From contig CAYLHT010000002.1 in assembly GCA_964383765.1 (NCBI GenBank), forward strand, positions 62,774 through 126,773: a stretch of 64,000 nt of DNA. The letters run 5' to 3'. A program made the translations under genes and the position numbers. The DNA comes from an uncultured Gammaproteobacteria bacterium (lineage in GTDB: Bacteria > Patescibacteriota > Patescibacteriia > SBBC01 > CAIJZX01). Below are positions 6,001-62,659 of this stretch, one piece after another. Every line of letters starts with the position of its first letter. Position 1 is the first letter of the stretch. Below the pieces are notes generated by a model that saw nothing but the letters and a program-made list of their open reading frames with translations, was not told the origin of the DNA and made no database searches.

Positions 6001-9000
6001 GCTCCGGCATCCGCGATCATGACGGCCGGCGGGGCTTGGTCAAATTCCGGTACCTTTACGAGCAATAGCGGCACGGTCAAATTCATTGGTACGTCGTCAT
6101 ATACGGTTGATGTCGGTGGAGGCAGCAATACTTTTAACAACGTTATTTTTGATGGCATTGGGGGAGCGTGGCGTCCAAATGCAAACAATTTTCGGATTGA
6201 TGGCGACTTCACCCTGACCAACGGAACCATTCAGGGTAACGGTGGCAACTGGATCATTGTGAAGGGAAATATTGCTTGCGGCGCCACCTGTGGATCAATC
6301 GACATGACCTTGAATTCCGGGACTGGTGTCTTTGAGCACTTGCTGACCAGTGGCAGTAAGAACTTCGGTACCAGCGTATCGGGCGACACGACGAACTGGA
6401 AGTTCTACGATTTGATGTTCGATGGTAACGCCACGGCAACTACCAGCACCACCCCCACCTCGCCAGGTACGATTACCATCACGCACCAAATGACGATCGC
6501 TATTGCCGGTACGACGTTAGATGCTGGCAATCGTACTTGGATTTTATCGGGTACTGGCACCGGCGCTTCTGCCCCGTTGATCAACGCCGGAACGTTGACT
6601 GGCAATGCATCGACGTTCAAGTACACCGGCGCAGACGCCACGACCGATATTAAAGGTACTACCTACTACAATTTAACCCTCGCGCCGACCATCACCACTG
6701 CCACCGCCTATAATGCCAATGGCGCGATCACCGCAACTGGCGCGCTATCAATCAACCCGACCTCCTCCGGTGCCAATGCGCTAACGTTCACCCTGGGCGG
6801 CACCACCAGCTTTACCGGGTTAACTACCATCACGCGTACAACTTCCGCCACGTCCGAACTGAATACAAGCGCTGCGTCACATTACAATTTTACGACCGGC
6901 GGCTTGACCATCAATGCCGGCGGGACATTTACCGGCAATACGAGCACGACGGTGACCGTGAACGGCGACATTACGATTGCTTCAAGCGGGACCTTGACCA
7001 GCACGTCCGGTAACGTAACCACCTCTGGGACATTCTCAAACAGTGGAGTATTCACCCACAACAGTGGAACGCTCACCATGACCGGCAGTGGCAAGACGTT
7101 AACCTCGGGTGGGAGCACCTTGAATAATGTCACCTTGTCTGGCTCGATCACCTTGGCGAACGCTACGCATACTATTGCCGGCAACTTGAGTTTGACCGGC
7201 GGCACGATTACAGCCGGAACATCGCTGATTGATATGACCGGGACCACGAAAACTATCGATGGTGGTTCGCAAACCTTGTACGATTTGACCATCGATGGGA
7301 CCACGACCTTGCAAACGGCGGCGATGAGTGTCTCGCATGTGCTGACGATTAGTGGCACAAAACAACTCACCATTAATCAGGACCTGACATTAACCAGTAA
7401 TGCTGGGACGCCATTTGTTTTATCCGGCACATTGGCCGGATCAAATTCACTGTATTACCAAAAAGGCGATACCTCATCGGCCTCATTCCCGACCTCCGGC
7501 ACAATTACAGCCAACATTGTGTTTGATACGATCAATGGGAACGGCGGAGACAGCTTTAGTCTGATCCCGAACCGAACCGCCTCGGCGCCATTCGGAGGCA
7601 ACGTCACCTGCTATGATAACCCCTCCGGCGTCACGCCGATTTGTAAATTCCTGACCGGCACGCCCACGATTTCTGGGAACTTGTTGGTGGCCGATAATGG
7701 TAACGGGGCGTCGCTGGATGCCAGTTCAAATCATCCGGATATAACCATTTCGGGCAATGTCTCGGCTACTGGCACGGGTGGATCATTGAGCATGGGTTCT
7801 GGTACCTGGACAGTGGGCGGTAATTTTGACCTGACGAATTTTGCTTCATTCGCCAACAATTCGGGAACCATTGTCCTCAACGGCAACTCGAAAACCTTAA
7901 CGACCAACGGCCAAACATTATTCAACCTGACTTTTTCCGGCGGCGGAACTGACACGCTCTCCGGGACTGTCACCGCCGCTGGCAACGTGGTGTTGAACAC
8001 GTCAGTGGCCGCCGGTTCGCTGACGATGACCGGGACCAAGAACCTGACCGGCGGAACGGCGACGCTCGACAATTTGACGGTCTCCGGTTCGCCCGTAACG
8101 CTGCAAACCAGCAATCTAACCGTTGGCACCCTGCTGACCGTCTCTTCGAGCAAGTCGTTAACCATTAACTCAGGGATCGTCCTGACCCTGTCTAAAACCT
8201 CGGGCACAAGCCTCACCATGACGAGTGCGACCATCAATGGCCCTGGCAAACTGATCTACCAAAGCACCTCGACCTTCCCGTCCGATGGCACGCTGGCCAG
8301 CATCCCGATTGTCCGGTTTGACCTGGTCAACGTGGCCGCGAATGGCAGCATGGTCATTCCGCAACGGTCAGACTATGGGGCGGTCGAAGTCTACAACAAC
8401 TCGGCGAGTAATAAGACGCTCAAAACCAATTCGAATACAACCTACACACTGAACGGTATCACCGCCAACCTGTACATCTACGCCGATGGCGGCGGCAACA
8501 CTACCTTCGATGCAACGGGCGCCGGAACCGTCAACTCGCCAATGACGGTTCCCGGTAACCTCGACTTCCTTGGTACCGGTGCGGGCAGTGAAATCATCAC
8601 CTCCGGTACGGGTACGTGGACGGTCACGGGTACCGTCGACTTCTCGGCGGCTGGCGGAGGAGCCGGAACGTACACAGCGACGAGCGGCAACACCTTTGTG
8701 ATGAACGGCCTGACCAAGACCCTGACGAGTAATGGCAACGCCTTTTCAAATCTGACGTTCTCAGGTAGCGGTACGACGACCATGGCGGATAGCATTTCAG
8801 CCAGCGGTGATGTGGTGTTGAATGGCAGTATTGGTGGCGGTTCCCTGACCATGTCTGGCGTCGGGAAAAACCTAACGGGCGGTTCGGCTACGTTGGCCAA
8901 CCTAACCATTTCCAATTCATCTGGGACTATCACCTTGACCGCCTCAAACCTGACCGTCAATACCGTGTTGACCATTAACTCGGGTGCTAACCTAACGTTA

Positions 9001-12000
9001 GGGTCGGGTCGAACCTTGACCCTGTCCCGCAATAACGTCAGCGCTTCCTTCAGCTTGAGCGGAACCTTGACCGGTACAGGCACCTTGATCTATCAGAATT
9101 TCTTGGCTGATAATGGCGGCACGTACTTCCCGACAACCGGGACCTTGGCTGCTTCGCCGAATGCTCCCACCATTCGATTTGATACTGCGAACGGTACGTT
9201 ACACGTGCCCGCTCGGACGGATTACGGGACGATTGAGGCCTACAAGAATGGCATCGCGAATGTCAGTGTCGTTTTGGGAACAGCCGCGTCTCAGAGTCTG
9301 AGTTTGTCCGGCAACCTCGACATCCAGAATGCAAATGCGACAAACACCTTGACGCTGGATGGAAACACCAACACTCCGGTGACCATGACGATCACCGGCA
9401 ACGTCACGAACTCAGTCGGCACCGGGAACACGACGTTCACCATGGGCGCCGGAACATGGACTGTGTCCGGCAACTTCGACCTGACGAATATTGATTCCTT
9501 CAGCAATAACAGCGGCACACTCGCGTTGAATGGCTCCTCAGCGAAGGCCCTAACCTCAAATGGCCAAACGGTCTTTAACCTGACCATCTCAGGGGCGGGA
9601 GCGACGACGCTCTCAGACGCCGCGATTGCGGCCGGGGACGTGATCCTGAATAGCACGGTGAGCGCCGGTTCCTTGACGATGAACGGCGCTGGCAAGAACC
9701 TGACGGGTGGTAGCGCGACCCTCGCGAACCTTACCATTTCGAATGGGTCCGGTACCATCACGTTGACTGGATCTGATCTGACCGTTAGTACCGTCTTGGC
9801 GATCAGCGCGAATGCCAATCTCACCTTAGCTTCCGGCCGAGTTTTGACCTTGTCTCGTAACAATGCCAGTGCTTCCTTTACGTTGCCAACGAATGCCACG
9901 CTGACTGGTCCGGGGACACTGGTGTACCAAAACTTCACCGCTGACAACGGCGGCACGTATTTCCCGACGACGGGGACTTTGGCTTCTAATCCCATCATCC
10001 GGTTTGATACGTTGAATGGTAACCTCCACGTCCCAGCCCGTACGGACTATGGCTCGATCGAGGCGTATGGTGACGCCGGAATCAGCGCCGCTCGGACCGT
10101 TACTCTGGGTACGGCCTCATCACAAACTATTACGACCAGTGGCTACCTCGACGTGATCGCCAACAGCAACACTGGCGGCCGGAACGTCACCCTGAACGGC
10201 AGTACCAATGATCCAACCTTGAACGTGGGTGGAGACTTTGCGTTCACCGGGACTGGAAGTACAAGTGAAGCCGTAACCGCGCCGGATGCAAGCGCGACCT
10301 GGACAGTGACCGGAAATTTCGACCTGACGAACGGCACGTGGACGGCTGGTGCTGAAACGCTGAAAATGAATGGAACGGCCAACTTGAAAGCCGCCGGTCA
10401 AACCATCAAGAATGTCACGATTGACGGAACGAATAGCACGGTCACGGTCACCGGATCAGACCTGACGGTCTCAGGAACGCTGACCATCGGCGGCGATGCG
10501 GCGGCGAATACCGACGTGCTCTCGATTGGCTCAGGTCGCCAAGTTCTGTCCGGCACGGCCGGGGCGGTGACGCTGACGGATGCAACCGATACCATTAGTG
10601 GATCTGGGACCCTGAACGTTGAGAATAGTAACCTTAGCGATCAGGGGACCTTGAGTGCCAATGTCACCTATACGATAGTTTCGAGTGACATCAACGCCAC
10701 CGCTCGCACGTATGGTGCGAATCTGACGTTTGATAATACGAATGGGGGAGGCTCAGTCTTTCTCAGCACTGGGACATTCGCGGTCACTGGGAACATGTCC
10801 TATGTTTGTAGCTTCAACTGTGACGCCGTCTTCCTGGACGGAGGAGATTTTAACCCCTTTGTGACGATTGGCGGATCCTTTAGTGTGACAGACCCAGGTA
10901 ACGCATCAAGCATGAGCATGGGCAACCAGACCTGGACAGTGAGTGGTAGCTTCAATTTGACCGGTCTGGGTAGTCTAAGCGCGACGGGCACGCTGCTTAT
11001 GAATGGAACCGGGACGCTGACCTCTAATAGTCTGTCTCTCAACAATGTTACTCTTGATACGTCGGGCGGAGGGACGATTACACTCGCGAACGCGGCTCAG
11101 AGTATTGCCGGTAACCTAGTGCTCACATCTGGCGGGACACTTACCGATGCCGGAACCTCGACCGAGGTCGACATGACGGGAACCAATAAAACAATTACCG
11201 GCGCCGGTAAAACGCTGCGTAACCTGACCATCGCCGGCACGATTACGTTACAAACGACTGACCTGACCGTCAGTACCCTATTGACCGTCAACACTTCGAA
11301 ATCACTGACGATCAACAGCAGCCGAACGTTAACCCTGTCAGGCAATAGCGGCACCACCCTATCACTCTCCGGGACGATCAATGGCCCTGGAACTCTGACC
11401 TACCAAAATAGCGCCACCGCCTTCCCAGCCGGAGGGGCGCTCGCCAGTATTCTGATTGCTCGTTTCGACCTGGTGAATGTCTCATCCGGCGGAAGCATGG
11501 TGATTCCGCAACGGGCGGACTATGGCGCGGTCGAAGCCTACAATAATTCTTCAAACAACAAGACCCTCAAGACCAATTCCAACTCGACATACACCTTGAC
11601 CGGCTCAACCGCCAATCTGTACATCTATGCCGATGGCACAGGCAATACCACCTTCGATGCGACGGGCGCGACCACGGTCAATTCGCCGATGACGATTGGC
11701 GGTAACCTTGATTTCCGCGGAACGGGGAGTGGCAGTGAAGCGATTACTTCAGGTACTGGCACCTGGACCGTCTCGGGCAGTGTCGACTTCTCAGCGGCCG
11801 GAGGCGGCAGCGGCACCTACACCGCGACGAGTGGTAATACACTGGTTATGAATGGTACCTCAAAAACGCTGACGACGAATGCGAACAGCCTCGACAACGT
11901 AACATTCTCGGGTAGCACGACCACGACCTTGGCTGACAGCGTGACAGCCACCGGCAACGTCGTCTTGAATAACACCATCTCAGCCGGATCGACAACCATG

Positions 12001-16966: not shown

Positions 16967-18078
16967 AACTGCTTGCCATCGGAGTGGTTATCGGTGGGTT
17001 GGCAATCTGGACCCGACCGGCTATGGCGGCGACCCCGACAACCCGCCTGGTTGGACCAACCGGCATTATTCGGAGCGGTGATACGATTGCGGTGGAGGTC
17101 AGGATTGATAGCGCTGGACGACTGGTGAACACGATTGACCTCCACGTGGCCTATAGTCCGACCTATCTGCAGATTATCCGGGTGGAACGCCAAGATCGTA
17201 TCTGGACGCTGTGGCCGAATAGTCCCAGTTGGGATAACCACACCGGGCAACTCGAACTGAGCGCCGGTCGTCCGCATGGGTTAGTGGCGATTGACGCCAG
17301 CGTCGCGACCGTTTTGTTTCGAGTCATGGCCGCCGGCTTGACGTCTGTGATTATCTCCCAACCCGCTTCAGCCGTGTACTTGAATGATGGGTTGGGAACC
17401 CGAGTCGGCGCGACCGGCGCCCATCTAGATGTCCCGATTGGAGATAGTCTCGTGCCGGTCATTCAACTTGATCCCGCAACTACCCCAGTCCCGGATGCCT
17501 GGTCTGCCAACGATCGGGTCAAGATTGTTTGGCCGGTTGAATCAGGCACGGTCTATAGTTATCGCTGGTCGAATGTGGTTGAAGATCAACCGGACGATAC
17601 TCCGGAAACCAATCCCGGTACCTTTGTTCAAGACCAGGTGGATGATGGCGTCTATTTCTTTACCATCAAAAGCAAGCTCGGGGATGGGTTATGGTCGCGG
17701 GTCAGTCAATTTCGCTTTCTGATTGACCGCCAACCACCGGCCGCGTTCGAGATCTTCGCTCTCCCGGCCTATCAAACCGGCGGCCAAGCCACGATTAGCT
17801 GGTCAACCACAGACCAGACGTCTGGAGTGGCAGAGTATCGTGTATTGATCAATGGCCATGATCGGGGTTCGGTCACCAGCCCGTTGGTGCTCGATCCCGA
17901 ATGGTCGGGCACGCGGCTAACCATTCGGGCGCTGGATGGCGCCGGTAACGAACGTCTGGCTGAGTTCAAGGTACCCGGGATTCGTCAATCCTGGGCGGGC
18001 GCGATTGCCGCTGGGGCGAGCCTCGCGATCGGCATCAGCGCGTGGGCGATCAGGCGAAAATCTCGCCGGGCAGTGTGA
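16954..18078 (+). CDS. Membrane-anchored cohesin-like domain protein 1 (374 aa): signal peptide, cohesin-like beta-sandwich, Fn3-like domain, C-terminal TM.
   Basis: The N-terminal region TIAVEVRIDSAGRLVNTIDLHVAYSPTYLQII...ATVLFRVMAAGLTSVIISQPASAVYLNDG fits the cohesin pattern (x-I-x-V-x-I, a named interface loop, FxV at the end). C-terminal TM AGAIAAGASLAIGISAWAI followed by RRKSRRAV. Confidence 0.7.
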   Translation: MDRLKLLAIGVVIGGLAIWTRPAMAATPTTRLVGPTGIIRSGDTIAVEVRIDSAGRLVNTIDLHVAYSPTYLQIIRVERQDRIWTLWPNSPSWDNHTGQLELSAGRPHGLVAIDASVATVLFRVMAAGLTSVIISQPASAVYLNDGLGTRVGATGAHLDVPIGDSLVPVIQLDPATTPVPDAWSANDRVKIVWPVESGTVYSYRWSNVVEDQPDDTPETNPGTFVQDQVDDGVYFFTIKSKLGDGLWSRVSQFRFLIDRQPPAAFEIFALPAYQTGGQATISWSTTDQTSGVAEYRVLINGHDRGSVTSPLVLDPEWSGTRLTIRALDGAGNERLAEFKVPGIRQSWAGAIAAGASLAIGISAWAIRRKSRRAV

Positions 18079-18094
18079 TATACTCAAGGTGAGT

Positions 18095-19552
18095 ATGCGC
18101 CGACTCGAAAGCATCTTGACGCATCGCTGGTTGCTCAAACCAGCCGTAACTGGCGGAGTGGTCGCCGCAATTTTTTTGTTGAATGTCCACGGGGCTGACG
18201 CGACTGGAGCCAGTTTGAAAATTTCTCCGCTGACCGGAACCTATGAAGTCGGGAGTACGGTCGATGTTTCGTTTTTAGTAGACACCGGCGGCGACGCGAT
18301 CAATGCTGTCCAAGCTGATATTCAATTTCCGGCCGATAAACTCCAAGTGGTCAACCCGGTGGCCAGTACCTCGTTCATTTCGATCTGGGTGACGACGCCG
18401 ACTTATTCGAATACCGACGGGACCATTCACTTCCAAGGCGGTTTACCCAACCCCGGAATCAAGACCGGCGGTGGCGTCATTAGTACAGTTACATTTCGGG
18501 TCAAAACTCCGGGGCAGGCTATCATTAAGTTTGCGCCCACCTCGCAGGTCTTACGCAACGACGGTCAGGGGACCAATATTCTGACCAGCACCGGTACGGC
18601 CGAGTATACGCTCAAGACGCCGCCACCAGCCGGGCCGGTGGTCTCGAGTCCAACCCATCCGGATGGTAACCAGTGGTACAGCAATCCGGACATTCAGTTT
18701 ACCTGGGAAGCGATCGATGGAGCGGTAGGCTATAGTTATAGCTTTGATCAAGTAGCAAAATCGACACCAGATGAGAGCATTGATACGGCCCAGTCAGCCA
18801 CCAGCGTGAAAGCTACTGGCGACGGCGTCTGGTATTTCCATGTTCGCGCTCGAACGACCAGTTGGGGCGGGACCACAACCTATCCCGTGCAGATTGATAC
18901 CACGCCGCCAGCCGCCTTCACGCCGAAACTGGACAGTGAAACGATTGTCCCGGACGATTCAACCACCTTACGTTTTTTGACTTCAGATGCCGCCTCCGGA
19001 ATTGATCATTACGAGGTCAGACAGGTGACGGTTGATGCTGGGCCCGATATCAATACCTTGTTCGTCGAAGCCAGTAGTCCGTACGTCGTCAAACCCGTCG
19101 CGGCCGGTAAGTATGAACTTCAAGTCCGAGCCTTTGATCGGGCCGGCAATTCGACGGATGGGACCGTCCGTTTGTCCGTCGTGGCGGGAGGTTTGCCATT
19201 CTTTGCGCGCGTCCCACTCTTGAAGAATCCGGCCATTGCCAACGCCGCCATGTTGGGGTTGCTGATCGCGGTGGTCCTAATGCTCGGATATTTAGTCGTC
19301 CGGCGTCTCCGTCTGCGCACGACGGTCCAGCGTGACGTGGCGGCCCTCGAACGGGATGCCGAGAAAAAAGCGGCTGCCCTCCAACGCGAGTTGGATGCCT
19401 TGCGGCAAGCCCAGCAAATGATTCAACCGGCCGTCGGCGCTCCCGCCCCATCGAGTGGAACCATGACGACGACGCCGTCCGCCCCGGTGCCCCCAACTGT
19501 GCCACCGTCCGCTCCAGTCGTCCCACCCCCACCCCCAGTGCCATCGCTATGA
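18095..19552 (+). CDS. Membrane-anchored cohesin-like domain protein 2 (485 aa): signal peptide, cohesin-like domain, two Fn3-like domains, TM, coiled-coil and Pro-rich tail.
   Basis: Start chosen at ATG 18095 (MRRLESILTHRW...signal) with AAGGTGAG upstream, because the tracked ORF start at 17936 overlaps the previous gene. Cohesin-like region SLKISPLTGTYEVGSTVDVSFLVDTGGDAINAVQADIQFPADKLQVVNPV...VISTVTFRVKTPGQAIIKF. TM LGLLIAVVLMLGYLVV. Confidence 0.7.
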   Translation: MRRLESILTHRWLLKPAVTGGVVAAIFLLNVHGADATGASLKISPLTGTYEVGSTVDVSFLVDTGGDAINAVQADIQFPADKLQVVNPVASTSFISIWVTTPTYSNTDGTIHFQGGLPNPGIKTGGGVISTVTFRVKTPGQAIIKFAPTSQVLRNDGQGTNILTSTGTAEYTLKTPPPAGPVVSSPTHPDGNQWYSNPDIQFTWEAIDGAVGYSYSFDQVAKSTPDESIDTAQSATSVKATGDGVWYFHVRARTTSWGGTTTYPVQIDTTPPAAFTPKLDSETIVPDDSTTLRFLTSDAASGIDHYEVRQVTVDAGPDINTLFVEASSPYVVKPVAAGKYELQVRAFDRAGNSTDGTVRLSVVAGGLPFFARVPLLKNPAIANAAMLGLLIAVVLMLGYLVVRRLRLRTTVQRDVAALERDAEKKAAALQRELDALRQAQQMIQPAVGAPAPSSGTMTTTPSAPVPPTVPPSAPVVPPPPPVPSL

Positions 19553-21429: not shown

Positions 21430-22127
21430 TGCCCACCCCCAACTCCCAGCAGCCACCCGAAAATCCCCTTGGCGACCCGCGCCGTTTTAAGGGCCTGAGT
21501 ACCGATCTCAAGAAATTGGCGGCCACCGAGCCGCGATCAGAGTTTTTACCAAGCTTTCAACGTTCAGTTGGCGGTTTTGCAAGTGAACTGATCAAGATTA
21601 TTCTGATCGCGTTCGCGATCATTATCCCACTTCGGTTTTTTATCCTGCAGCCGTTCTATGTCAAAGGGGCCTCGATGGAACCAAATTTTCACGATAATGA
21701 ATACTTAATCATTGATGAACTCTCCTATCGCCTGCACGCGCCCCAACGCGGTGATGTGATCGTGCTGAAAAACCCCAGCCAACCGTCAGAATTTCTGATT
21801 AAACGTATTATTGGTTTACCGAATGAGCGTCTGACGATTGCGGATGGTGCCGTCACGATTTATAACGCGACCTGGCCAGACGGCGGAGTGCTCGACGAAT
21901 CAAGTTACTTACCGACCGGTCGAGAAACCTTTGGGCAACTCGATGTCACCTTAGGGCCGGGAGAATACTATGTCCTGGGTGATAACCGGCCGGCCAGCTT
22001 GGACTCACGCGTATTTGGACCGGTCCTTCGGTCGGCGATTATCGGCCGGACGGCAGTCCGGGCTTGGCCGTTATATCGGGCGCGGACATTTAGCACACCC
22101 ACCATCGATCGAAAAGTCGTCAAGTAA
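21429..22127 (+). CDS. lepB: Signal peptidase I (LepB family).
   Basis: Catalytic and box motifs GASMEPN, GDVIVLKNP, IKRIIGLPNERL and YYVLGDNRPASLDSR. The start ATG overlaps the terminal A of the tRNA-Val CCA. Confidence 0.85.
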   Translation: MPTPNSQQPPENPLGDPRRFKGLSTDLKKLAATEPRSEFLPSFQRSVGGFASELIKIILIAFAIIIPLRFFILQPFYVKGASMEPNFHDNEYLIIDELSYRLHAPQRGDVIVLKNPSQPSEFLIKRIIGLPNERLTIADGAVTIYNATWPDGGVLDESSYLPTGRETFGQLDVTLGPGEYYVLGDNRPASLDSRVFGPVLRSAIIGRTAVRAWPLYRARTFSTPTIDRKVVK

Positions 22128-54778: not shown

Positions 54779-56206
54779 ATGCGTCGGTCATTTTTGTTTT
54801 CATTACTGATTGGATTTTGCGGCGGGATTGGCCTGGCCGAGCTTTGGCATGTGCCGATGATCATCGTCGCGATTGGCGTTGGTGCTGGTTTGATTGTGAC
54901 GTCAGCTCCACGAACGAGGTTGATCGGATTACTGGTGATCGGGTTGTGTCTCGGATCGTGGCGGTGGACAGTTTCCACCAACCCGAAATCAAACAGCGTC
55001 GTTCAGTTCCTCGATCACTCTATCGAAGCGACTGGGGATGTTCTTGAAATGCCGATCGTCGACACCCAGCAGACTGTACTTCTAACGAATATTGAAACGA
55101 AGAATGCACGCTGGTCAGGAAAAGTACAAATCTCTTTGCCTCGATTTCCGGAATACCACCTGGGCCAACATTTGACCGTGCGCTGCACGCCGATGGGATT
55201 TACTCCGACTCAACGTTGGCGCCAATGGTCGCACGGAGTTCAAGTACGATGTTTCAACGCGACGGTTGTTCATCTGACTTCAGTTGCGCCGTCCCTTCGT
55301 TTACAGCTCGGAAAAATCGAAGCGGCGGTGGTTACGTATATTCATCGATCGTACAACGAACCACAAGCGTCGCTACTCGCCGGAATTATTTTGGGAAATC
55401 AGAATGGCATGCCGGCTGAACTGACTCAAGCATTCCAAGCCACCGGCACAACGCACATTATCGCCCTCTCCGGTTTCAACGTGACGATTATCGTCAGCTC
55501 AGTGATGGTCGTCTTGGTGCGGTTAATCGGCCGGCGGTGGGCCTGGATTCCGGGCCTACTGTTGGTGATCCTGTTTGTGGTTATGTCAGGGGCGTCGGCA
55601 TCGGTCGTGAGAGCAGCGGTCATGGCAGTCATTGTCCAGCTCGGTTTGTTCCTTGGTCGGCCGATTCATCCGGCACGGCTCTTGTCGTATACCGCCCTGA
55701 TCATGCTCTGGGAGAATCCGCTGATCCTACTCCACGATTTAGGATTTCAGTTGTCCTTTCTCGCGACTTTTGGACTCGTGTTCTTGTCGAAGCCGCTAGC
55801 TACGAAGCTGACAAGAATTCCTGAAACTCTAGGGCTTCGAGAAAATTTAGCGACGACGCTCTCGGCCATTATCGCGACTGAGCCGTTGTTGTTGTGGCGC
55901 TTCGGTCGGCTGTCACTGATTGCGCCGCTGGTCAATATTGTCGTCCTGCCGATGATCCCATTGGCGATGGGATTGGGTACACTGAGCTTGGTTGGAATGG
56001 CGGTTCCTCTGATCGCCACGCCAATCGTAGCAACCACGGACGCGTTATTGCGAATTATTCTCATATGCATAACGACCGGCTCCAGATTACCGATCGCGTT
56101 AGTGTACTTGCCAGCAGTACTGACGAGTTTGGCCGGTTTAGCATTCCTCTTGATTACCATTCGTCTTATTCATAGTCCATGTGTAGATGAAACTCATCCT
56201 GCTTAG
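54779..56206 (+). CDS. comEC: Competence protein ComEC/Rec2: N-terminal DUF4131 plus competence (channel) domains.
   Basis: Polytopic. Contains LSGFNVTIIVSSVMVV...SASVVRAAVMAVIVQLG, the typical ComEC core. It lacks the MBL domain, which is encoded by the next ORF. Confidence 0.8.
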   Translation: MRRSFLFSLLIGFCGGIGLAELWHVPMIIVAIGVGAGLIVTSAPRTRLIGLLVIGLCLGSWRWTVSTNPKSNSVVQFLDHSIEATGDVLEMPIVDTQQTVLLTNIETKNARWSGKVQISLPRFPEYHLGQHLTVRCTPMGFTPTQRWRQWSHGVQVRCFNATVVHLTSVAPSLRLQLGKIEAAVVTYIHRSYNEPQASLLAGIILGNQNGMPAELTQAFQATGTTHIIALSGFNVTIIVSSVMVVLVRLIGRRWAWIPGLLLVILFVVMSGASASVVRAAVMAVIVQLGLFLGRPIHPARLLSYTALIMLWENPLILLHDLGFQLSFLATFGLVFLSKPLATKLTRIPETLGLRENLATTLSAIIATEPLLLWRFGRLSLIAPLVNIVVLPMIPLAMGLGTLSLVGMAVPLIATPIVATTDALLRIILICITTGSRLPIALVYLPAVLTSLAGLAFLLITIRLIHSPCVDETHPA

Positions 56207-57050
56207 CCTGGTAGTGGTCGTGTTTTTAGCGGCCTGGGCAATACCCAAACCGCGGCATCAGGGCTGCGCGTTTACCGCGCTCGATATCGGCCAAGGGGAT
56301 AGTCTGCTGATTCAAACCCCTGATCACCAAGACATTCTGATTGACGGCGGACCGAGCGATCAGGTCGTAGAGAAACTAGGAAAATACTTGCCATTCGGCG
56401 ATCGTGATCTTGAGCTGGTGGTCTTAACTCATCCCCATGCCGATCATGTGAATGGTCTGGTGGCCGTGACGCAGAGATTCACGGTTCGACAGGTTATACT
56501 GACCGAGGTGAAATTTCAACAAGGCGCCTACGCCGCCTGGCTGGATGAACTTTCCCAGCAACATATTCCTGAGCACGTCGCCGTGTCAGGCCAACGCTAT
56601 GTGATTGGTGCGGCCACGTTGGATGTACTGTGGCCGAATCGTGATTTGTCTCACGACTCGATCGAGAAAGATAATGCGGCCAATGGTGGGGGAGTGAACG
56701 ACAGCTCGATTGTCTTGCGGCTGACCTGTGACCGTAGCCGGGCGATGCTGATGGGCGATGCATCGAGTGAGATTGAAGACAGAATTCTCGAACGTGGCGG
56801 AGATGTTCGGGCCGATTTGCTCAAAGTCGGTCACCACGGTTCTCGATTTTCGTCGGGTGTGAAATTCTTGGCGTCAGTTCAACCAGTGTGGGCGGTGATT
56901 TCCGATGGTGTCAACAACCGGTATCATCATCCACACCCGACTGCGCTTCTGCGCCTTCAACAGGTTGGAGCGAAGATTCTACGGACAGACCTAAGCGGAG
57001 ATATTAGACTAGAGACTGATGGGTTTGGGCATTGGCAAAGGCGCAAGTAG
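56187..57050 (+). CDS. comEC: ComEC C-terminal metallo-beta-lactamase domain, as a separate overlapping ORF.
   Basis: HPHADHVNGL and DGGPSD motifs. Overlaps the upstream ORF by 20 nt in another frame. This is either a genuinely split gene or a frameshift. Confidence 0.7.
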   Translation: MKLILLSLVVVVFLAAWAIPKPRHQGCAFTALDIGQGDSLLIQTPDHQDILIDGGPSDQVVEKLGKYLPFGDRDLELVVLTHPHADHVNGLVAVTQRFTVRQVILTEVKFQQGAYAAWLDELSQQHIPEHVAVSGQRYVIGAATLDVLWPNRDLSHDSIEKDNAANGGGVNDSSIVLRLTCDRSRAMLMGDASSEIEDRILERGGDVRADLLKVGHHGSRFSSGVKFLASVQPVWAVISDGVNNRYHHPHPTALLRLQQVGAKILRTDLSGDIRLETDGFGHWQRRK

Positions 57051-57077
57051 GGTGTTTGCCTACGTCAAAAAGTGCAT

Positions 57078-57103
57078 TGGCGGGCCCAAGGGGATTTGAA
57101 CCC
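57078..57103 (-). other. tRNA-Asp-like 3' segment (T-arm plus acceptor plus CCA) lacking an adjacent 5' half. Its complementary 5' half lies at 57283-57308.
   Basis: GGGTTCAAATCCCCTTGGGCCCGCCA (- strand) differs from the tRNA-Asp 3' end by one acceptor base. The matching 5' segment GGGCCCATGGTGTAGCCCGGTTAACC at 57283-57308 carries the compensatory change. Confidence 0.5.
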
Positions 57104-57151
57104 GTCTCGTTCCGCTGGGCGGAACTCGACTCCTCCGTGCCGCTTCGCTCC

Positions 57152-57229
57152 TGGCGGACCCAAGGGGATTTGAACCCCTGATCTTCTCCGTGACAGGGAG
57201 ACGTGTTAACCGGGCTACACCATGGGTCC
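57152..57229 (-). tRNA. tRNA-Asp (anticodon GUC) with encoded CCA.
   Basis: Manual fold of the reverse complement: acceptor GGACCCA/TGGGTCC, D-arm GTGT...ACAC, anticodon stem TCTCC/GGAGA with loop CTGTCAC, T-arm AGGGG-TTCAAAT-CCCCT, discriminator G, CCA. Confidence 0.85.
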
Positions 57230-57368
57230 CCAGGAGCGAAGCGGATTGAAAATGTGTTTGGCGTGCCTGCCCAGCTTCACATCGAGTCTCGAGATGTGGG
57301 GCTGGGTTAACCGGGCTACACCATGGGCCCAAAAAGAAATGCCGGACCAGCGTAGCACCGAAAGGCTG

Positions 57369-57408
57369 TTTTGTCTAGACAAAACACACCCCGCGAGGCG
57401 GGGTGTGT
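57369..57408 (-). terminator. Terminator hairpins downstream of the NHL-repeat gene, with bidirectional potential.
   Basis: Perfect palindrome TTTTGTCTAGACAAAA, then stem ACACACCCCGC-GAG-GCGGGGTGTGT. On the - strand the GC stem is followed by TTTTGTCT. Confidence 0.5.
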
Positions 57409-57420
57409 TTGTTGGCTGAA

Positions 57421-59424
57421 TTACTTCAGACTGATCGACCGGATCAAATCGTTCAGTTGGTCAGCCACCAAGACGGTCTTATTCGAGAGCAACAGGACGC
57501 CACGCGGGGTGTTGAAGGTGGCATGCGTTTGGTCAGCGTTGAAGTTGCCGCGCTTGCCTGACCCGGCGAGCAACGAGATCGTTTTCTTGGCGAGGTCAAT
57601 CACGCGGACGGTATTACTCCCCGTTTCAGTCAGCAGCAAGGTGTTGCCCAGGCCCCGGGCTAAAGTTTGAGGATAGGCCAGGACTGCCTGAGACCACTTC
57701 CCATTCTGCAATCCAACGTTGCCATTGCCCATGAGCTTCGTGACTTGCTTGGTCTTCAGGTTCAAGCTATCGACCGTATTGCCAGTTTCATCAGCGATGT
57801 ACAGGGTTTTCTGGTCGGTGCTCAAGACCAAGCTGTTCGGTCGTTTGAAGCGAGCTTTTGATCCGATCCCGTCTTTAATGCCAGCAGTACTGTTGCCCGC
57901 CAGAAGCTTGGTATTACCGGTGGCGACGTCGACGCTACGAATCCGGTGGTTAAAACTATCGGCCACGTAGAGAGTTTTCCCGTTGGCACTGATGGCGATG
58001 CCGGTCGGTCGGTCAAAGTAGGCACACCCAGCCACACCGGTGTCGGTCATTCCCGGGCAAGGGGTACCCTCAGCGTAGCCGTTGGCGGTACCACTGAAAA
58101 CATTGAATTTGCCGGCGCCAGTCAGCGTGGTGATTTCATTGTTGGCCAAGTTCAGAACCCGAATGCGGTTGTTATTTCGATCGGCGAAGTAAATTTTGGT
58201 GCCGCCCGGGTTGATGGCAATTTGCTGGGGACCGCTGACGCGAGCAAGAGTGCCGATCCCATCCACGAAGTTGTCGTCTTGATGTCCGGCTAAGAACGTC
58301 AGGGTTTTGGCGGTCAGGTCAATGACTTTGAACTGATCGTTTTCCAGCAGGTAGATCTTTTTCTTGTCCGTTGATAATACCATTGCGACTGGCCGACCAG
58401 TGAGCGCTTGTGACAATGCTCCGTCGCGCTGGTTGCGACGATGGGCTCCGGCGATCTTGATTGGGTTAGCGCCGTCGAGGTCAGCGGTATACACGCTCGA
58501 TCCGGACTTGAACAACAAGTACATTTTTCCACCGCAGAAGGTGAGATCGGAGGCGTGATTATACCATTCAGTTTCAGCCACGGCCTGCAGCTGGGTGATC
58601 ACACCAGTACCCGGCACGTATTTCCAGATGTAATTGGTGGTGCCGTTCGTTCCGGAGACGAAGTAGACATCGCCGTTGTAGACCGTCACCCCCTCAGCGT
58701 CGACCATCCCAGTTTTCAAGTCCGTCACACTGCCGGTCGTTAGGTCAACGCTGGCAAAGGTCGAGGAGTTGTTGTGCATGACGTACAGCGTCGAACCAAG
58801 GATGTCCATCTTGCCGGGAGTCGTCAACGTCGCAAGCGTACTGCTGGCTTGCGTGACCAGGTTGACTTTCAGGATTTTATTGTGTCCGGTGTCGGCGACA
58901 AAGAGTGAGGTGCCATCAGTGGCCACGCCCTGCGGATTTTTTAATCCCGTCAGCCAGGCTGAAACTCCAATGCCATTCATCTTTCGCACCCGGTTATTGT
59001 CGGCATCGCTGACGTAGAATTCACCGGCTGGCCCCATCACGATGTCAGTTGGGGTGGTGAATTTGCTGCTGGCCAGTACACCATTCTTGAAACCATACTG
59101 TCCGGAGCCAGCGTAGGTGGTGATGACGTTACTGGTGTCGATTTTGCGGATGACGAAATTGCCAGTATCAGCGATGTACAGGTTGCACGAACTGTCCGCG
59201 ACAAAACCCTGGGGGGTGTCGAGGAAGGCGCTGTTGGCGTCCCCACCGTCGCCGTCGTACGTTTTACTGAAATACGTCTTGACGTCACCGTACTTGGCCT
59301 GGGCCGGAATGGCGGTGGTGAGAGAAACCAAAACGACGGTCAGCAGGGCTGACGCGCGAGTGAGATGTCGCATAGGCATGTTGTTCGTTAGTTTGTAGAC
59401 GCTAGTATAGCATGGCGGAGACAA
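57421..59424 (-). CDS. Secreted NHL-repeat (six-bladed beta-propeller) protein (667 aa).
   Basis: Signal peptide. Repeated YxADxxNxRIRxx units: YVSDADNNRVRKM, YFADRNNNRIRVL, YVADSFNHRIRSV, and more. Confidence 0.75.
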   Translation of the reverse strand: MSPPCYTSVYKLTNNMPMRHLTRASALLTVVLVSLTTAIPAQAKYGDVKTYFSKTYDGDGGDANSAFLDTPQGFVADSSCNLYIADTGNFVIRKIDTSNVITTYAGSGQYGFKNGVLASSKFTTPTDIVMGPAGEFYVSDADNNRVRKMNGIGVSAWLTGLKNPQGVATDGTSLFVADTGHNKILKVNLVTQASSTLATLTTPGKMDILGSTLYVMHNNSSTFASVDLTTGSVTDLKTGMVDAEGVTVYNGDVYFVSGTNGTTNYIWKYVPGTGVITQLQAVAETEWYNHASDLTFCGGKMYLLFKSGSSVYTADLDGANPIKIAGAHRRNQRDGALSQALTGRPVAMVLSTDKKKIYLLENDQFKVIDLTAKTLTFLAGHQDDNFVDGIGTLARVSGPQQIAINPGGTKIYFADRNNNRIRVLNLANNEITTLTGAGKFNVFSGTANGYAEGTPCPGMTDTGVAGCAYFDRPTGIAISANGKTLYVADSFNHRIRSVDVATGNTKLLAGNSTAGIKDGIGSKARFKRPNSLVLSTDQKTLYIADETGNTVDSLNLKTKQVTKLMGNGNVGLQNGKWSQAVLAYPQTLARGLGNTLLLTETGSNTVRVIDLAKKTISLLAGSGKRGNFNADQTHATFNTPRGVLLLSNKTVLVADQLNDLIRSISLK

Positions 59425-60898: not shown

Positions 60899-61300
60899 GG
60901 GGATGTTCAAACGTCGAACGATCGTTGAGAACTCAAGACTATCGTGCCGACACGCCAACAACGTCGTAAAAATGTTGGAATGAGATACGTGCCAAAACAC
61001 TTCTCAGCAGACTTCGGGACAGCGTAGCTTCGGCTTTCGCCCAACCGTCGTTTGTTCCTGCCGTCGCCTAAACCGCGACTGCCATCCGTCCAGGCGACTC
61101 CGACTAGCCTGATCGCGGGTGTCATTTCTGTCGGGCCGGTGGGAGACTGTTCAGCGCTCTCACTGCGTACTGCCTGAACGCCGTCAGCAGGATTCTGGCC
61201 GACTCTGATCCTGGTGACGTAACTTGAGCCGGCTGCGCACGGGACCAGTAGTCTTCGGTTCTTCGTCGCCACGCGGGTGCAAGACCCGCCATCTCCACCA
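60899..61300 (+). ncRNA. ssrA: tmRNA (ssrA), ~402 nt.
   Basis: 3' end ACGCGGGTGCAAGACCCGCCATCTCCACCA parallels E. coli ACGCGGGUUCAACUCCCGCCAGCUCCACCA. The 5' GGGGATG pairs with CATCTCC including the G3-U70 wobble. A candidate tag frame ends ...FAQPSFVPAVA-TAA. An intrinsic terminator follows. Confidence 0.75.
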
Positions 61301-61515: not shown

Positions 61516-61994
61516 GGTTTGAGTCTTTTCCTTTTCGGCGCGCCCAAGCGTCCGCGTCGTGGTCGAGTTGCAAGTCCTTTAGTCCACTCGCGAGTCACGT
61601 GGTTGGATTGCCAACCAAGTCGACGATGAAGTTTTTGAATATATGGGTTGTTCGTGACCGCGTAGGCTAGCAGGAAGTAAGCTTTGCGTCGTCGTGCCTC
61701 GCTTTCCATCGCTTCCAACAACGTTCGACCGATTCCCTGACTGCGGTATTTTTTTGACACGACAATATACTGAGATAAATATCCGGCCACGATTTTTTCG
61801 GCAATCGTAAATCCAATGATTTGTTTATTCATCACCGCTATCAGAAAAATGTGTTTACCTTTCACTACGCGTTGGTAATATTCCAGCGGCAGGTACCACC
61901 CCGGCGCAATCGCGATTTCCGGAACTCGGCCGAGTCTTTCGACGGCACGGCAATCAGACAGACGGGCAGCGCGAATTGAAAATGTAATTTTCAT
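61512..61994 (-). CDS. GNAT-family N-acetyltransferase.
   Basis: Acetyl-CoA binding motif region VVSKKYRSQGIGRTLLE. Confidence 0.7.
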   Translation of the reverse strand: MKITFSIRAARLSDCRAVERLGRVPEIAIAPGWYLPLEYYQRVVKGKHIFLIAVMNKQIIGFTIAEKIVAGYLSQYIVVSKKYRSQGIGRTLLEAMESEARRRKAYFLLAYAVTNNPYIQKLHRRLGWQSNHVTREWTKGLATRPRRGRLGAPKRKRLKP

Positions 61995-62437
61995 GCTTTC
62001 ACCCTCATCGCCCGTCGAATTTTCCTTTCGACCTCACGTTTTTTGATCGATGCACGTTTATCAAATTGTTTTTTCCCCCGCGCCAACCCGAGTTCAACCT
62101 TCACTAATCCTTGCTTATCGTAAATTGAAAGCGGCACTAAGGTCAAACCCTGACTTCGTAAACTTCCAATGAGCCTATCGATGTCCCGACGTCGAACCAG
62201 TAACCGGCGACTACGGGTGGGATCATGTTTCATTTGTGAAGCCGGTTTGTAGGCGCCGACATGGGCGTTGATTAACCACAGTTCGCTATTGCGAATCGTG
62301 GCGTAGCTGCCTTTCAAACTGGTGTTGCCGCCCTTGATTGATTTGACCTCGGGTCCGGTCAAGGAAATGCCGGCTTCCATTGTTTCAAGTATCTGGAATT
62401 TATGGCGGGCGTCGCGATTGGTGGCGAAGGTAGGCAT
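61991..62437 (-). CDS. smpB: SsrA-binding protein SmpB.
   Basis: ...ATNRDARHKFQILETMEAGISLTGPEVKSIKGG...LLVRRRDIDRL... Start set at MPTFATN; the upstream 19 codons of the tracked ORF are unlikely. About 1 kb from ssrA. Confidence 0.85.
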   Translation of the reverse strand: MPTFATNRDARHKFQILETMEAGISLTGPEVKSIKGGNTSLKGSYATIRNSELWLINAHVGAYKPASQMKHDPTRSRRLLVRRRDIDRLIGSLRSQGLTLVPLSIYDKQGLVKVELGLARGKKQFDKRASIKKREVERKIRRAMRVKA

Positions 62438-62659
62438 GCGGAAAGTGTACCAGAAAAGTAGCTTCGCCGCTGTCATGGTGCCTGCCCGCCGCATGGCTTC
62501 GGCAGGCGGGAGCCCGCTCCACTGACCCTTCGACTAGGGTCCTCCGCTGTGCTTCGGACCCTCGCCTCTCGTTAGCCTCGGGTCGGCTCAGGGTGACAGT
62601 GGAGCGGAGCCACGCAGTGGCTAGTCGAACCATCAGCGGCGATAGTGTATACTTTCGGT

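Follow-up and report, generated by a model that had tools for sequence, protein, structure and literature searches.

In Archaea and a few eukaryotes, tRNA genes can be split, permuted or interrupted by multiple bulge-helix-bulge (BHB) introns at non-canonical positions, and a tRNA intron can house a functional RNA, as the archaeal tRNA-Trp intron does with its C/D box RNA. In bacteria, group I introns interrupt the anticodon loop of cyanobacterial tRNA-Leu and similar genes, and genomic islands or prophages integrated at tRNA genes leave partial tRNA 3'-end repeats behind. REP and IS200/IS605-type elements combine a hairpin with a conserved tetranucleotide and are moved as single-stranded DNA, with a Y1 (TnpA/RAYT) transposase as a feature of these systems, and the leader/trailer processing stems of rRNA operons are RNase III substrates. 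The fragmentation of tRNA genes is an old question, and one idea is that it is driven by mobile elements that target tRNA genes. Here, we describe a complete tRNA-Asp gene nested within the pieces of a second tRNA-Asp copy. The 64-kb window (the whole stretch of DNA analysed) comes from a Kerfeldbacteria-like CPR bacterium and contains what is presumably its single tRNA-Asp locus; the nested form of this locus is seen again elsewhere in the group. Literature searches on Kerfeldbacteria, on tRNA introns in CPR bacteria and on bacterial tRNA genes that are nested or disrupted yielded nothing relevant, and the layout is apparently undescribed in these tiny uncultured bacteria.

The unit lies on the minus strand, spans approximately 253 nt (57078-57330) and is preceded by a promoter-like TAGACA/TACGCT pair. 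From 5' to 3' it comprises positions 1-24 of an outer tRNA, a palindrome with CAGGCACG, a linker, a helix-clamped inner tRNA-Asp, an anticodon-arm remnant, a GA-hairpin and outer positions 53-78, as follows.

57372-57377, minus strand: -35-like box TAGACA of the tRNA-Asp promoter, matching relatives in box and spacing
57349-57354, minus strand: -10-like box TACGCT, 18 nt upstream of the outer 5' end
57307-57330, minus strand: outer piece 1, GGGCCCATGGTGTAGCCCGGTTAA, a 24/24 match in the spliced alignment
57270-57306, minus strand: hairpin A, a palindromic insertion of 37 nt in the D-loop (CCCAGC..GCTGGG)
57262-57269, minus strand: insertion tail CAGG, then CACG (tRNA D-stem 3' strand and G26)
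57245-57261, minus strand: A/T-rich, unconserved linker, 39% identical among otherwise identical relatives
57230-57244, minus strand: leader arm CCGCTTCGCTCCTGG, pairing with CCA and trailer over 15 bp with 0 mismatches
57152-57229, minus strand: inner complete tRNA-Asp(GUC), CCA encoded, the working gene (ARAGORN; Rfam RF00005)
57140-57151, minus strand: trailer arm GGAGCGAAGCGG
57130-57139, minus strand: degraded outer anticodon-arm remnant CACGGAGGAG, aligning to tRNA positions 36-52 at 12/17
57104-57130, minus strand: GA-hairpin within the variable-loop region (GTCGAGT-stem-loop-ACGAGAC), fold -14.5 kcal/mol
57078-57103, minus strand: outer 3' piece GGGTTCAAATCCCCTTGGGCCCGCCA, tRNA-Asp positions 53-78, a 26/26 match
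57066-57077, minus strand: T-run ATGCACTTTTTG after the unit, a possible transcript end on a reading of the sequence

The anatomy of the nested unit is thereby established. An earlier sequence-only reading had described a tRNA-Asp within a tRNA-Asp-like remnant with an inverted repeat at its flanks, and the nested arrangement is real, but two of its coordinates were wrong. The complete tRNA-Asp(GUC) was correctly placed at 57152-57229 and is a canonical tRNA, called tRNA-Asp(gtc) by ARAGORN and scoring 67.7 bits against RF00005, for which the gathering threshold is 29. The 3' half-copy also lies where it had been located. The 5' half-copy GGGCCCATGGTGTAGCCCGGTTAACC exists, but at 57305-57330, the interval 57283-57308 first assigned to it being hairpin sequence; likewise, the perfect inverted repeat CCGCTTCGCTCC / GGAGCGAAGCGG is genuine, but its arms are at 57233-57244 and 57140-57151, 1 nt from the positions first given. 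The helix is truly 15 bp long, because the leader TGG pairs with the tRNA's own CCA, with G73 bulged. The proposed compensatory difference at 3:70 (A3-U70 inner, G3-C70 outer) holds, and the copies differ nowhere else. As had been claimed, there is no intact anticodon arm between the halves, where the degraded remnant covers the 3' side of the anticodon loop, the 3' strand of the stem and the variable region, and the 90-aa frame is present (ORF 57060-57332) and matches no protein family. To that description we add hairpin A with CAGGCACG on its 3' side, the remnant, the conserved GA-hairpin, covariation of the inverted repeat, a palindrome family in the outer copy and a conserved family of such arrangements.

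Outer piece 1 supplies the 5' strands of the acceptor and D-stem plus D-loop, and the outer 3' piece supplies the T-arm, the acceptor 3' strand, G73 and CCA, ending in GCCA and pairing 7/7 with the outer 5' strand in the minimum free energy (MFE) fold. The GA-hairpin has tandem G.A/A.G near the base of its stem. Folding of the whole unit gives -131.6 kcal/mol (z = -7.1) and pairs its outer ends, and the junction pattern is expected 0.00 times in shuffles. The only other tRNA in the window, a tRNA-Val, has neither partial copies nor arms; a 12-mer of tRNA-Asp beside it at 21461 is at chance level and belongs to no RNA family.

The same architecture is found at no fewer than eight other independent loci in CPR genomes and metagenomes, and recurrence is thus shown across at least nine independent loci including the window. 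The nested loci come from species-representative genomes (L018, L033, L034) and from metagenomes (L057, L058/L060, L059, L061), a small sample of about nine. All five pattern matches from the metagenome search contain an inner tRNA-Asp. The search pattern itself partly imposes the 5' conservation, including that of the CA(G/T)GCACG that all nested loci have 3' of hairpin A. Synteny extends across the neighbourhood (comEC ... tRNA-Asp ... L20/IF3 ... tmRNA ... GNAT), and the Pfam-checked genes around the unit are ordinary. Following synteny from ComEC-C led to just one simple locus (L002/L003) and to L001, which is rich in remnants. Intact GTCACGGAG(A/G)AGA occupies the position of the remnant in L018, L034, L037 and L057, the GTCGAGT...ACGAGAC module of the GA-hairpin recurs in L057, L059 and L001, and the GCCAGGAGCGAA junction at the trailer is common to the window, L033, L034, L059 and L001. 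Conservation is mosaic: among relatives, identity is 100% in outer piece 1 and its equivalents, in the arm and in the inner tRNA, next to 43% for upstream DNA and 39% for the linker. Conserved outer ends thus stand beside saturated linkers. The 3' side is highly variable between close relatives, and the trailer plus a partial tRNA are tandemly duplicated in L057.

The outer copy occupies the ancestral position of the gene. Its 5' end and the 5' ends of uninterrupted tRNA-Asp genes in relatives lie at equal distance from a conserved TAGACA-N17/18-TACACT promoter, the boxes of which are common to simple and nested loci. The TAGACA box precedes, with equal spacing, the nested units L034, L059, L058 and L033 and the simple genes L002, L012, L027 and L040, and at the -10 position relatives carry TACACT, TACGAT or TAGAAT. 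Because a strict sigma-70 scan of the window called no promoter, the TAGACA box included, the promoter assignment is a comparative inference. The outer acceptor is of the G3-C70 type, as in the simple orthologous gene of L002, which also has the same upstream TTTTT and promoter as the nested outer copy. In relatives, terminators follow the outer GCCA, with clear hairpin terminators 3' of the unit in L018, L033 and L057. The inner tRNA differs in type from the outer copy in L058 and L037, and in the window at position 3:70.

Pairing of the outer ends is widely retained. GCCA ends occur in 7/7 complete units and the ends pair in the MFE fold of six of these seven. In L058 the acceptor pairing is kept through two G.U pairs, and in L057 the inner tRNA has no encoded CCA, yet the outer acceptor is paired and ends in GCCA; terminal mismatches occur in the outer acceptor stems of L018, L059 and L057. 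The outer copy of L018 is broken by seven insertions into eight pieces, some of only 4-9 nt, which still match 75/78 of tRNA-Asp, and the outer pieces of L037 match at 52/53 and are of a different type from its inner tRNA. When joined, the outer pieces are called tRNA-Asp(GUC) by ARAGORN in L018, L034 and L057 and make no tRNA in the window, L033 and L058, where the anticodon arm or the T-arm is absent. Therefore, decoding cannot be the conserved role of the outer copy. For the window we show that the outer pieces cannot join into a tRNA: the second tRNA that was to be looked for is not called on the contiguous sequence (Rfam at E<=10), by ARAGORN in intron mode or by ARAGORN on the joined pieces. 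The outer parts match no known RNA family even at E<=10; a weak permuted-tmRNA match (11 bits) is noise.

Like archaeal disrupted tRNA genes, the outer copy consists of collinear pieces broken at the D-loop, anticodon loop, variable loop and T-loop, and in L018, L034 and L057 these add up to a canonical tRNA. Unlike them, the host is a bacterium with tmRNA and SmpB, one insertion holds a whole tRNA, the outer copy of the window is not reconstitutable, and the insertions belong to one palindromic DNA element in both orientations. Archaeal BHB introns, in which the exon-intron junctions carry two 3-nt bulges separated by 4 bp, were rejected on inspection of the junctions, which show continuous 7-14-bp stems abutting the tRNA and no paired bulges. 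A split or permuted gene is not supported either, as the pieces are collinear within 253 nt between one promoter and the outer GCCA. With group I-interrupted tRNA genes it shares a bacterial host, an interrupted anticodon region and, if co-transcription is right, a single precursor. However, no intron or ribozyme family matches 56950-57450 at E<=10, the insertions are hairpins of 30-45 nt or a tRNA, much too small for a catalytic core or not of its kind, and there are several insertion sites against one. As with RNAs housed in introns, a tRNA precursor would give up a stable functional RNA from within; here, in contrast, that RNA is itself a tRNA, with the identity of the copy that hosts it, the organism is a bacterium, and the hosting copy is apparently the dispensable one of the two.

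A perfect but sequence-variable helix clamps the inner tRNA, and we show that it is confined to loci with outer pieces: it is present in 8/8 of these and in 0/9 simple tRNA-Asp loci. It measures 11-21 bp with 0 mismatches, 5 G.U and 0 A.C, and represents at least five unrelated sequences, and it resembles an RNase III-type processing stem in that pairing is conserved and sequence is not. The likeness to the rRNA processing stems lies in a long perfect helix flanking a stable RNA; unlike those, it flanks a 78-nt tRNA and includes the CCA of that tRNA. The simple tRNA-Asp genes of relatives, unlike the nested ones, lack such a helix.

We further show that the palindromic insertions form one family, placed in both orientations and precisely at unpaired tRNA positions, with tRNA bases neither lost nor duplicated. 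Hairpin A is found at the same tRNA position in all nine nested loci, and the hairpins inserted elsewhere in the tRNA are its reverse complement; 71/72 cross-class comparisons align better as reverse complement. Seven of the 11 pairs of hairpin A change on both sides, a score reached by 0/500 shuffles, and this covariation is purely Watson-Crick, without G.U intermediates. Hairpin A is more stable as antisense (-24.1 kcal/mol) than as sense (-18.0 kcal/mol), and across the family stability follows the orientation of the element 12:1 (p = 0.003). Selection of the hairpins as sense-strand RNA is unsupported, with stability against the sense strand at 6:7. Since the strand asymmetry follows the element and not transcription, the insertions are DNA-level elements and not introns of the archaeal or group I type. 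They resemble REP and IS200/IS605 elements: each is an imperfect palindrome of approximately 36-42 nt headed by a conserved tetranucleotide (CYTG), both orientations occur, insertion is precise and duplicates no target, and the hairpin is stabler on the element's own strand. They differ in that copies were found only inside tRNA-Asp units and not dispersed, the tetranucleotide is not that of known families, and no Y1/RAYT transposase was identified. No further copies were present in the 64-kb window or in approximately 100 kb of related loci, and a genome-wide REP/MITE family is therefore rejected for the sampled DNA. Two look-alikes are due to chance, one at 18451-18514 of the window within a 538-aa ORF, the other a hairpin before the tmRNA of L058 without counterpart at the tmRNA of the window.

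The relatives also demonstrate that the tRNA-Asp locus is an integration target. In L061 a serine-recombinase element sits at the 3' end of the inner tRNA, with a Resolvase-family gene and a ParB-like gene abutting it and with the trailer and outer 3' pieces gone. Arrays of serial 3' remnants are found in L001, L012 and L037, and an orphan remnant in L024. In the window itself the 3' part of the tRNA is directly repeated downstream of the complete copy (26 nt at 57078-57103), as at attachment-site scars, and there is no recombinase-bearing element between the repeats; L061 does have such an element. The serial remnants and the recombinase-bearing element of relatives add to that likeness. Unlike at attachment-site scars, the 5' half is duplicated too, the copies are only 48-100 nt apart (48 nt between the inner and outer 3' copies of the window) with no element body in between, each copy has its own matched 3:70 pair with no hybrids, and a selected helix clamps the inner tRNA. 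A viral attP was considered and rejected, as no viral contig carries the tRNA-Asp 3' end; BLAST searches of phages and plasmids matched only the inner tRNA, at ~80%, the level of generic tRNA similarity.

On balance, we regard it as probable that a resident tRNA-Asp gene was split by inserted DNA carrying a replacement tRNA, that everything is co-transcribed and that the clamp is insulating. An interruption by a tRNA-carrying insertion was also among the three explanations of the sequence-only reading and is the best fit of them; a recombination product of tandem tRNA-Asp genes finds no such tandem in any of the nine simple relatives, and a permuted or split gene disagrees with collinear pieces at one locus that make no tRNA when joined in the window. 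The ancestral transcription unit would have retained its promoter and both of its ends, 24 nt on the 5' side and 26 nt, GCCA included, on the 3' side, with its middle replaced by about 200 nt of inserted DNA, namely the 37-nt D-loop palindrome, the second tRNA-Asp(GUC) in its 15-bp helix and the GA-hairpin. The old promoter would transcribe the whole unit as a single ~270-nt precursor, in which the helix may prevent the inner cloverleaf from mispairing with the near-identical outer halves. Because the helix pairs the leader with the CCA, it probably needs to be cut first, by an RNase III-type, double-strand-specific nuclease like that acting on rRNA operons; RNase P and 3' trimming would then release the working tRNA, and the outer ends would pair with each other into a tRNA-like closed end on the precursor. 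As to origin, tRNA-Asp-carrying DNA may have inserted into the resident gene and, as it brought its own tRNA-Asp, would therefore have become indispensable, most of the insert being lost afterwards. As for the small palindromes, they may be single-strand DNA elements of a REP/IS200-like kind, inserted into the loops of DNA able to form the cloverleaf. Several observations sit awkwardly with this account. An outer conservation of 100% beside saturated linkers is unexpected for dead remnants; tracts of 22-43 nt could owe it to gene conversion from the inner copy, but the 4-9-nt pieces of L018 and the type-differing pieces of L037 could not. No element carrying a whole tRNA-Asp was caught, and the confinement of the palindromes to nested units is unlike REP or MITE families.

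The same conservation lends weight to an explanation that we consider unlikely, that the outer gene is functional, being either reconstituted, by removal of the insertions at the RNA level or by precise excision of the palindromes from the DNA, or kept as a tRNA-like scaffold RNA with paired acceptor ends, GCCA and hairpin expansions in a non-decoding role. Outer pieces conserved like a real tRNA next to saturated linkers would be expected of it, and it is favoured by the eight pieces of L018 that spell 75/78 of tRNA-Asp across seven insertions, the ARAGORN calls on joined pieces in three loci, the precise insertions at unpaired cloverleaf positions, each closed by a helix, and the paired outer acceptor with GCCA in all complete units, even L057 and, through its G.U pairs, L058. 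Yet the joined pieces give no tRNA in the window, L033 and L058, the acceptor stems of L018, L059 and L057 have terminal mismatches, no junction has bulge-helix-bulge geometry, no ribozyme family matched, and a palindrome in both orientations with an asymmetry that follows the element is hard to reconcile with a single RNA excision machinery. A second tRNA-Asp would also be unnecessary given the intact inner tRNA. That the Kerfeldbacteria group holds a bacterial counterpart of the archaeal disrupted tRNA genes, in which mobile palindromes at nearly every loop and a cassette holding a second tRNA interrupt a tRNA-Asp gene that is still used, reconstituted or as a tRNA-like RNA, strikes us as distinctly doubtful.

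The integration evidence raises the question of whether the unit is a mere scar, left at a tRNA attachment site by repeated rounds of integration, excision and local duplication, its inverted repeats and hairpins being leftovers of recombination sites or of template-switch (quasi-palindrome) mutation without an RNA role. The serine-recombinase element of L061, the serial and orphan 3' remnants, the tandem duplication in L057 and the variable 3' side of close relatives all fit, as do the Watson-Crick-only covariation of the hairpins and an asymmetry independent of the direction of transcription. Classical integration, however, duplicates only the 3' part of a tRNA and leaves hybrids, so that the upstream 5' half and the matched 3:70 partners in both copies are unexplained, as is a spacing of 48-100 nt without an element body; outer-end conservation is far above that of flanking DNA, and no attP-bearing viral contig was found. 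Moreover, selection on RNA pairing is indicated by clamps that are perfect at 8/8 loci, represent at least five unrelated sequences and, on the transcribed strand, contain G.U pairs and lack A.C pairs. This explanation, too, we hold to be improbable. An assembly or binning artefact, in which reads from two tRNA-Asp alleles of a metagenome were joined into a chimera, has a negligible chance of being correct. The source is apparently a metagenome-assembled genome of an uncultured lineage and near-identical inner and outer repeats can confuse assemblers, but the architecture occurs with different sequences in independent assemblies from GTDB genomes, JGI metagenomes, ENA and Logan, its covarying helices are lineage-specific, and an identical unit lies on two different contigs (L058 and L060).

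For genome annotation, standard pipelines see one normal tRNA and a spurious 90-aa ORF at this locus and miss the rest. For the biology of the group, one bacterial locus shows a series of stages, from intact genes, through loci with 3' remnants only and nested loci with an outer copy that can be reassembled on paper, to nested loci with a decayed outer copy, as in the window, and one case with a recombinase element attached. If the outer gene were still used, the locus would be a live example of mobile elements fragmenting a tRNA gene, and of a tRNA 'intron' whose passenger is itself a tRNA. The selected leader/trailer clamp bears on how stable RNAs are processed in minimal CPR cells.

A nested tRNA-Asp locus, in which a complete inner tRNA gene lies inside the disrupted pieces of an outer one, is present in the window; it is conserved and apparently undescribed. 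The whole unit is encoded on the minus strand. Both ARAGORN and Rfam find a single canonical tRNA-Asp(GUC) at 57152-57229 (-), where the sequence-only reading had placed it, and its nested observation is real once coordinates are corrected. The 3' half-copy does lie at 57078-57103, but the 5' half-copy, put at 57283-57308, is at 57305-57330 (GGGCCCATGGTGTAGCCCGGTTAACC), and the inverted repeat said to flank the tRNA exists with its arms at 57233-57244 and 57140-57151, 1 nt from the positions proposed. Inner and outer copies differ solely at paired positions 3 and 70, the compensatory change described earlier. When the inner tRNA is masked, a spliced alignment matches the outer pieces to tRNA-Asp positions 1-24 (24/24) and 53-78 (26/26); between them only the degraded GGCACGGAGGAGTCGAG resembles positions 36-52 (12/17), in line with the claim that no intact anticodon arm remains there. 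The suggested check with tRNA finders, run as ARAGORN in intron mode and Rfam at E<=10, calls no second tRNA in the unit, and the 90-aa ORF reported across it is present and has no protein family match. The unit has a predicted fold of -131.6 kcal/mol (z = -7.1), in which the outer ends pair mutually and the inner cloverleaf sits atop a long stem.

Features of the tRNA-Asp unit in the window
57372-57377, minus strand: -35 box, TAGACA
57349-57354, minus strand: -10 box, TACGCT
57307-57330, minus strand: outer piece 1
57270-57306, minus strand: palindromic hairpin A, inserted in the outer D-loop
57262-57269, minus strand: CAGGCACG
57245-57261, minus strand: linker
57230-57244, minus strand: leader arm
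57152-57229, minus strand: inner tRNA (ARAGORN, Rfam)
57140-57151, minus strand: trailer arm
57130-57139, minus strand: anticodon-arm remnant (spliced alignment)
57104-57130, minus strand: GA-hairpin
57078-57103, minus strand: outer 3' piece with GCCA end (spliced alignment)
57066-57077, minus strand: T-run

Neither partial copies nor a flanking helix accompany the other tRNA of the window (Val). A 12-mer identical to part of tRNA-Asp, AAATCCCCTTGG, lies 32 nt downstream of it at 21459-21472 (+); it was rejected as a tRNA-Asp piece, with about 0.5 chance matches expected and no RNA family match there.

The same architecture recurs in relatives. Among the CPR loci in a scan of species-representative genomes with the tRNA 3' end as query (53 loci), L018, L033 and L034 are nested; in L037, L012 and L001 an intact tRNA-Asp is trailed by outer 3' pieces or by a series of remnants; and L009, L027, L040, L050, L008, L026 and L032 have a simple tRNA-Asp. 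A D-loop junction pattern that had beforehand matched only the four nested loci then known gave five matches in metagenomes, 5/5 nested with an inner tRNA-Asp (L057, L058 = L060, L059 and L061). On a sample of about nine nested loci, part of them found via conserved patterns and from incomplete genomes, the nested tRNA-Asp locus is a family, not an accident. The nested unit of L033 lies on contig CAYNGY010000002.1 (246 kb), labelled 'uncultured Gammaproteobacteria', and its tRNA-Asp is of the type found in the Kerfeldbacteria loci L027 and L040; probably either the bin is mislabelled or the contig is misassigned.

At every locus with outer pieces, the sequence directly 5' of the inner tRNA pairs perfectly with that directly 3' of it, frequently beginning at the tRNA's own CCA. 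These clamp helices are 11-21 bp long, with no mismatches, five G.U pairs and no A.C pairs, and have at least five unrelated sequences (for example CCGCTTCGCTCCTGG in the window, GTTGGGCTTTCTCGACT in L018, AATAAAAAACTAAGC in L057, ACCCCGTATATG in L058 and CGTGCGCGGGG in L037); leader/trailer pairing above chance level occurs in 0/9 simple tRNA-Asp loci. Judged from these sequences, no other feature speaks as strongly for selection on RNA pairing as the clamp helix. Because it stacks on the acceptor stem and sequesters leader and CCA, it may insulate the inner cloverleaf from the near-identical outer halves, and may require a double-strand-specific cut before RNase P acts, as in rRNA operons, whose processing stems it would resemble, with a putative cleavage.

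The window's flanking genes are ordinary chromosomal ones (release factor, glmS, split comEC, NHL-repeat protein, L20, IF3, tmRNA, GNAT acetyltransferase and smpB); the named nearest ComEC-C homologues are from Patescibacteria/Kerfeldbacteria, and identity to the closest relatives is just 64-76%. One relative (L002/L003) shares the neighbourhood (comEC ... tRNA-Asp ... L20-L35-IF3 ... tmRNA ... GNAT) and holds one uninterrupted tRNA-Asp, whose acceptor (GGGCCCA/TGGGCCC) and upstream TTTTT are those of the window's outer pieces. TAGACA-N17/18-TACACT stands equally far upstream of simple tRNA-Asp genes (L002, L012, L027 and L040) and, in nested units, of the outer 5' end; L018, L033 and L057 have hairpin terminators beyond the outer GCCA. 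Together these point to the outer copy holding the ancestral gene position, and the whole nested unit looks like one transcription unit; a strict sigma-70 scan did not call the window promoter, so this point rests on comparison.

Nearby, at a distance of 3.6 kb, is a one-piece standard tmRNA (Rfam score 62.7 bits) with smpB adjoining (60899-61300 (+), 61991-62494 (-)), and the order tRNA-Asp ... L20/IF3 ... tmRNA is kept in L002 and L058. comEC consists of two overlapping ORFs, a Competence/DUF4131 part (54779-56206 (+)) and a separate metallo-beta-lactamase part (56187-57050 (+)); since it is split likewise in L001-L003, the split is a lineage feature rather than a frameshift error.

The completeness of the outer copy varies among loci. 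In L018 its eight blocks, split by seven insertions, together cover all 78 positions, 75/78 of them identical, and in L034 positions 1-27 and 34-76 match perfectly. Conservation across the unit is a mosaic.

Mean pairwise identity in four loci with identical inner tRNAs; in two of the four the search pattern dictated the CAGGCACG motif and some of piece 1, and piece 1 positions 1-11 and the arms are free of it
Upstream DNA: 43%
Outer piece 1: 100%
Hairpin A: 65%
Linker: 39%
5' arm: 100%
Inner tRNA: 100%
DNA 3' of the inner tRNA: 36%

All complete units (7/7) end in GCCA, including L057, whose inner tRNA has no encoded CCA, and in 6/7 the MFE fold pairs the two outer ends with each other. L058 retains its outer acceptor pairing via two G.U pairs; L018, L059 and L057 have terminal mismatches. 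Conservation, GCCA and end pairing together indicate that the outer ends are under some constraint. ARAGORN calls the joined outer pieces tRNA-Asp(GUC) in L018, L034 and L057, but makes no such call for L033, L058 or the window. The constraint does not extend to a complete outer tRNA, and in the window the outer copy is unable to decode; that the outer gene is itself functional we consider improbable.

The insertions that split the outer copies lie at unpaired cloverleaf positions (9/10 hinge, D-loop, 26/27 hinge, anticodon loop at 34/35, variable loop and T-loop), and the majority are precise, with tRNA bases neither lost nor duplicated. Most belong to one family, a CYTG head with a 30-40-nt palindrome (~YCCCGTAAAC..ACGCGAAGCG..GTTGTACGGGR), of which the D-loop copy is the reverse complement of copies at other sites (71/72 cross comparisons align better that way). 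Covariation supports the D-loop hairpin: 7/11 pairs changed on both sides and none on one side only, a score reached in 0/500 shuffles. Hairpin stability tracks how the element itself is oriented (12 better, 1 worse, 4 ties; p = 0.003), with no preference for the transcribed strand (6 versus 7); hairpin A of the window is the clearest case (sense -18.0, antisense -24.1 kcal/mol). This element-oriented asymmetry, the presence of both orientations and the precise sites argue against RNA-level introns of one kind. The insertions would fit small palindromic DNA elements in the style of REP/IS200-IS605, which enter DNA while it is single-stranded; in a strand able to fold as a cloverleaf, the loops would offer accessible targets. 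The dispersal that defines those families was looked for and not seen: neither the rest of the 64-kb window nor ~100 kb of DNA from related loci has comparable hairpins, and a transposase was not found either. A long imperfect palindrome at 18451-18514 with a CCTG-CCCCGG head, within a 538-aa ORF (17936-19552) and with a long irregular loop, looks like the hairpin family only on the surface and was judged chance.

A GA-hairpin module (GUCGAGU-stem-loop-ACGAGAC) with tandem G.A/A.G mismatches near its base occurs at 57104-57130 and in L057, L059 and L001, kept across distant loci at differing tRNA sites (variable loop or T-loop). It has no Rfam match and may be a protein-binding motif. L057 also carries a tandem duplication inside its unit (~3960-4375 (-)): the trailer CTTAGTTTTTTATT and the anticodon arm with its palindrome are in two copies, the first extending into a complete T-arm and 3' acceptor strand of inner type.

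The window's inner and outer copies differ in type at 3:70, and its inner type is native to L012; L058 and L037 combine a quite different inner tRNA-Asp with an outer copy that retains the common type. The inner tRNA sits within the stem of the anticodon-loop palindrome in L058 and at the 26/27 hinge in L018, L034 and L057. In L061 the trailer arm and outer 3' pieces are gone, and in their place a Resolvase-family and a ParB-like gene lie directly against the 3' end of the tRNA; serial 3' remnants (L001, L012 and L037) and an orphan one (L024) also occur. Differing inner types, the L061 element and the remnant series make this locus a recombination and integration hot spot.

Several of these loci have details of their own. 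The L061 genes (76-774 (+), 1197-1769 (+)) are a serine recombinase running into the inner tRNA-Asp 3' end and, next to it, a ParB-like/HTH gene; together they probably represent an integrated mobile element with this tRNA as attachment site. L001 (8575-10186 (-)) has a tRNA-Asp cut by the contig end and three successive 3' remnants, one with a T-loop insertion; a 260-aa ORF (8899-9681) without Pfam match lies between remnants 2 and 3. L012 (2230-2359) and L001 (~9970-10070) share a structured spacer before a 3' remnant (GGATTYGAAGGGCAG ... CTGCCCAGGACACRAATCCCC), with an upstream segment complementary to the remnant's T-loop and T-stem and a compensatory change in its inner hairpin (CGTCGA/TCGACG versus CGGCGA/TCGCCG). 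The L024 remnant (3674-3699, GGTTTCGAATCCCCTTGGGCTCGCCA), on L018's 495-kb contig, has a two-component system on one side and an unknown ORF on the other but no tRNA close by, and may represent the distal end of an old insertion.

Three explanations had been offered: interruption by an inserted tRNA-carrying element, recombination of tandem genes, and a permuted or split gene. The first is favoured; a permuted or split gene does not agree with the collinear outer pieces. The simplest origin is that DNA with its own tRNA-Asp entered the resident gene and the remainder of the insert would subsequently have been lost; no intact tRNA-Asp-carrying element was found in viral, phage or plasmid collections. 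A classical att-site scar shares the 3' repeat at the window unit, but the element body is absent and the att-site model leaves the 5' duplication unexplained; given also the paired clamp arms, we think it unlikely that the arrangement is merely a scar. Archaeal disrupted tRNA genes are the closest resemblance, with multiple loop insertions and pieces summing to a tRNA, although their BHB feature is not seen here and the host is a bacterium; a group I intron has no match in the unit. Full-text literature of incomplete coverage contained no account of nesting or disruption of tRNA genes in CPR bacteria, and a prior description is possible.

On balance we lean towards an inner gene that is a working tRNA on a selected clamp helix, within a resident gene disrupted by palindromic DNA insertions. 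In the window the ends of that outer copy are still constrained, and its capacity to make a tRNA is gone.
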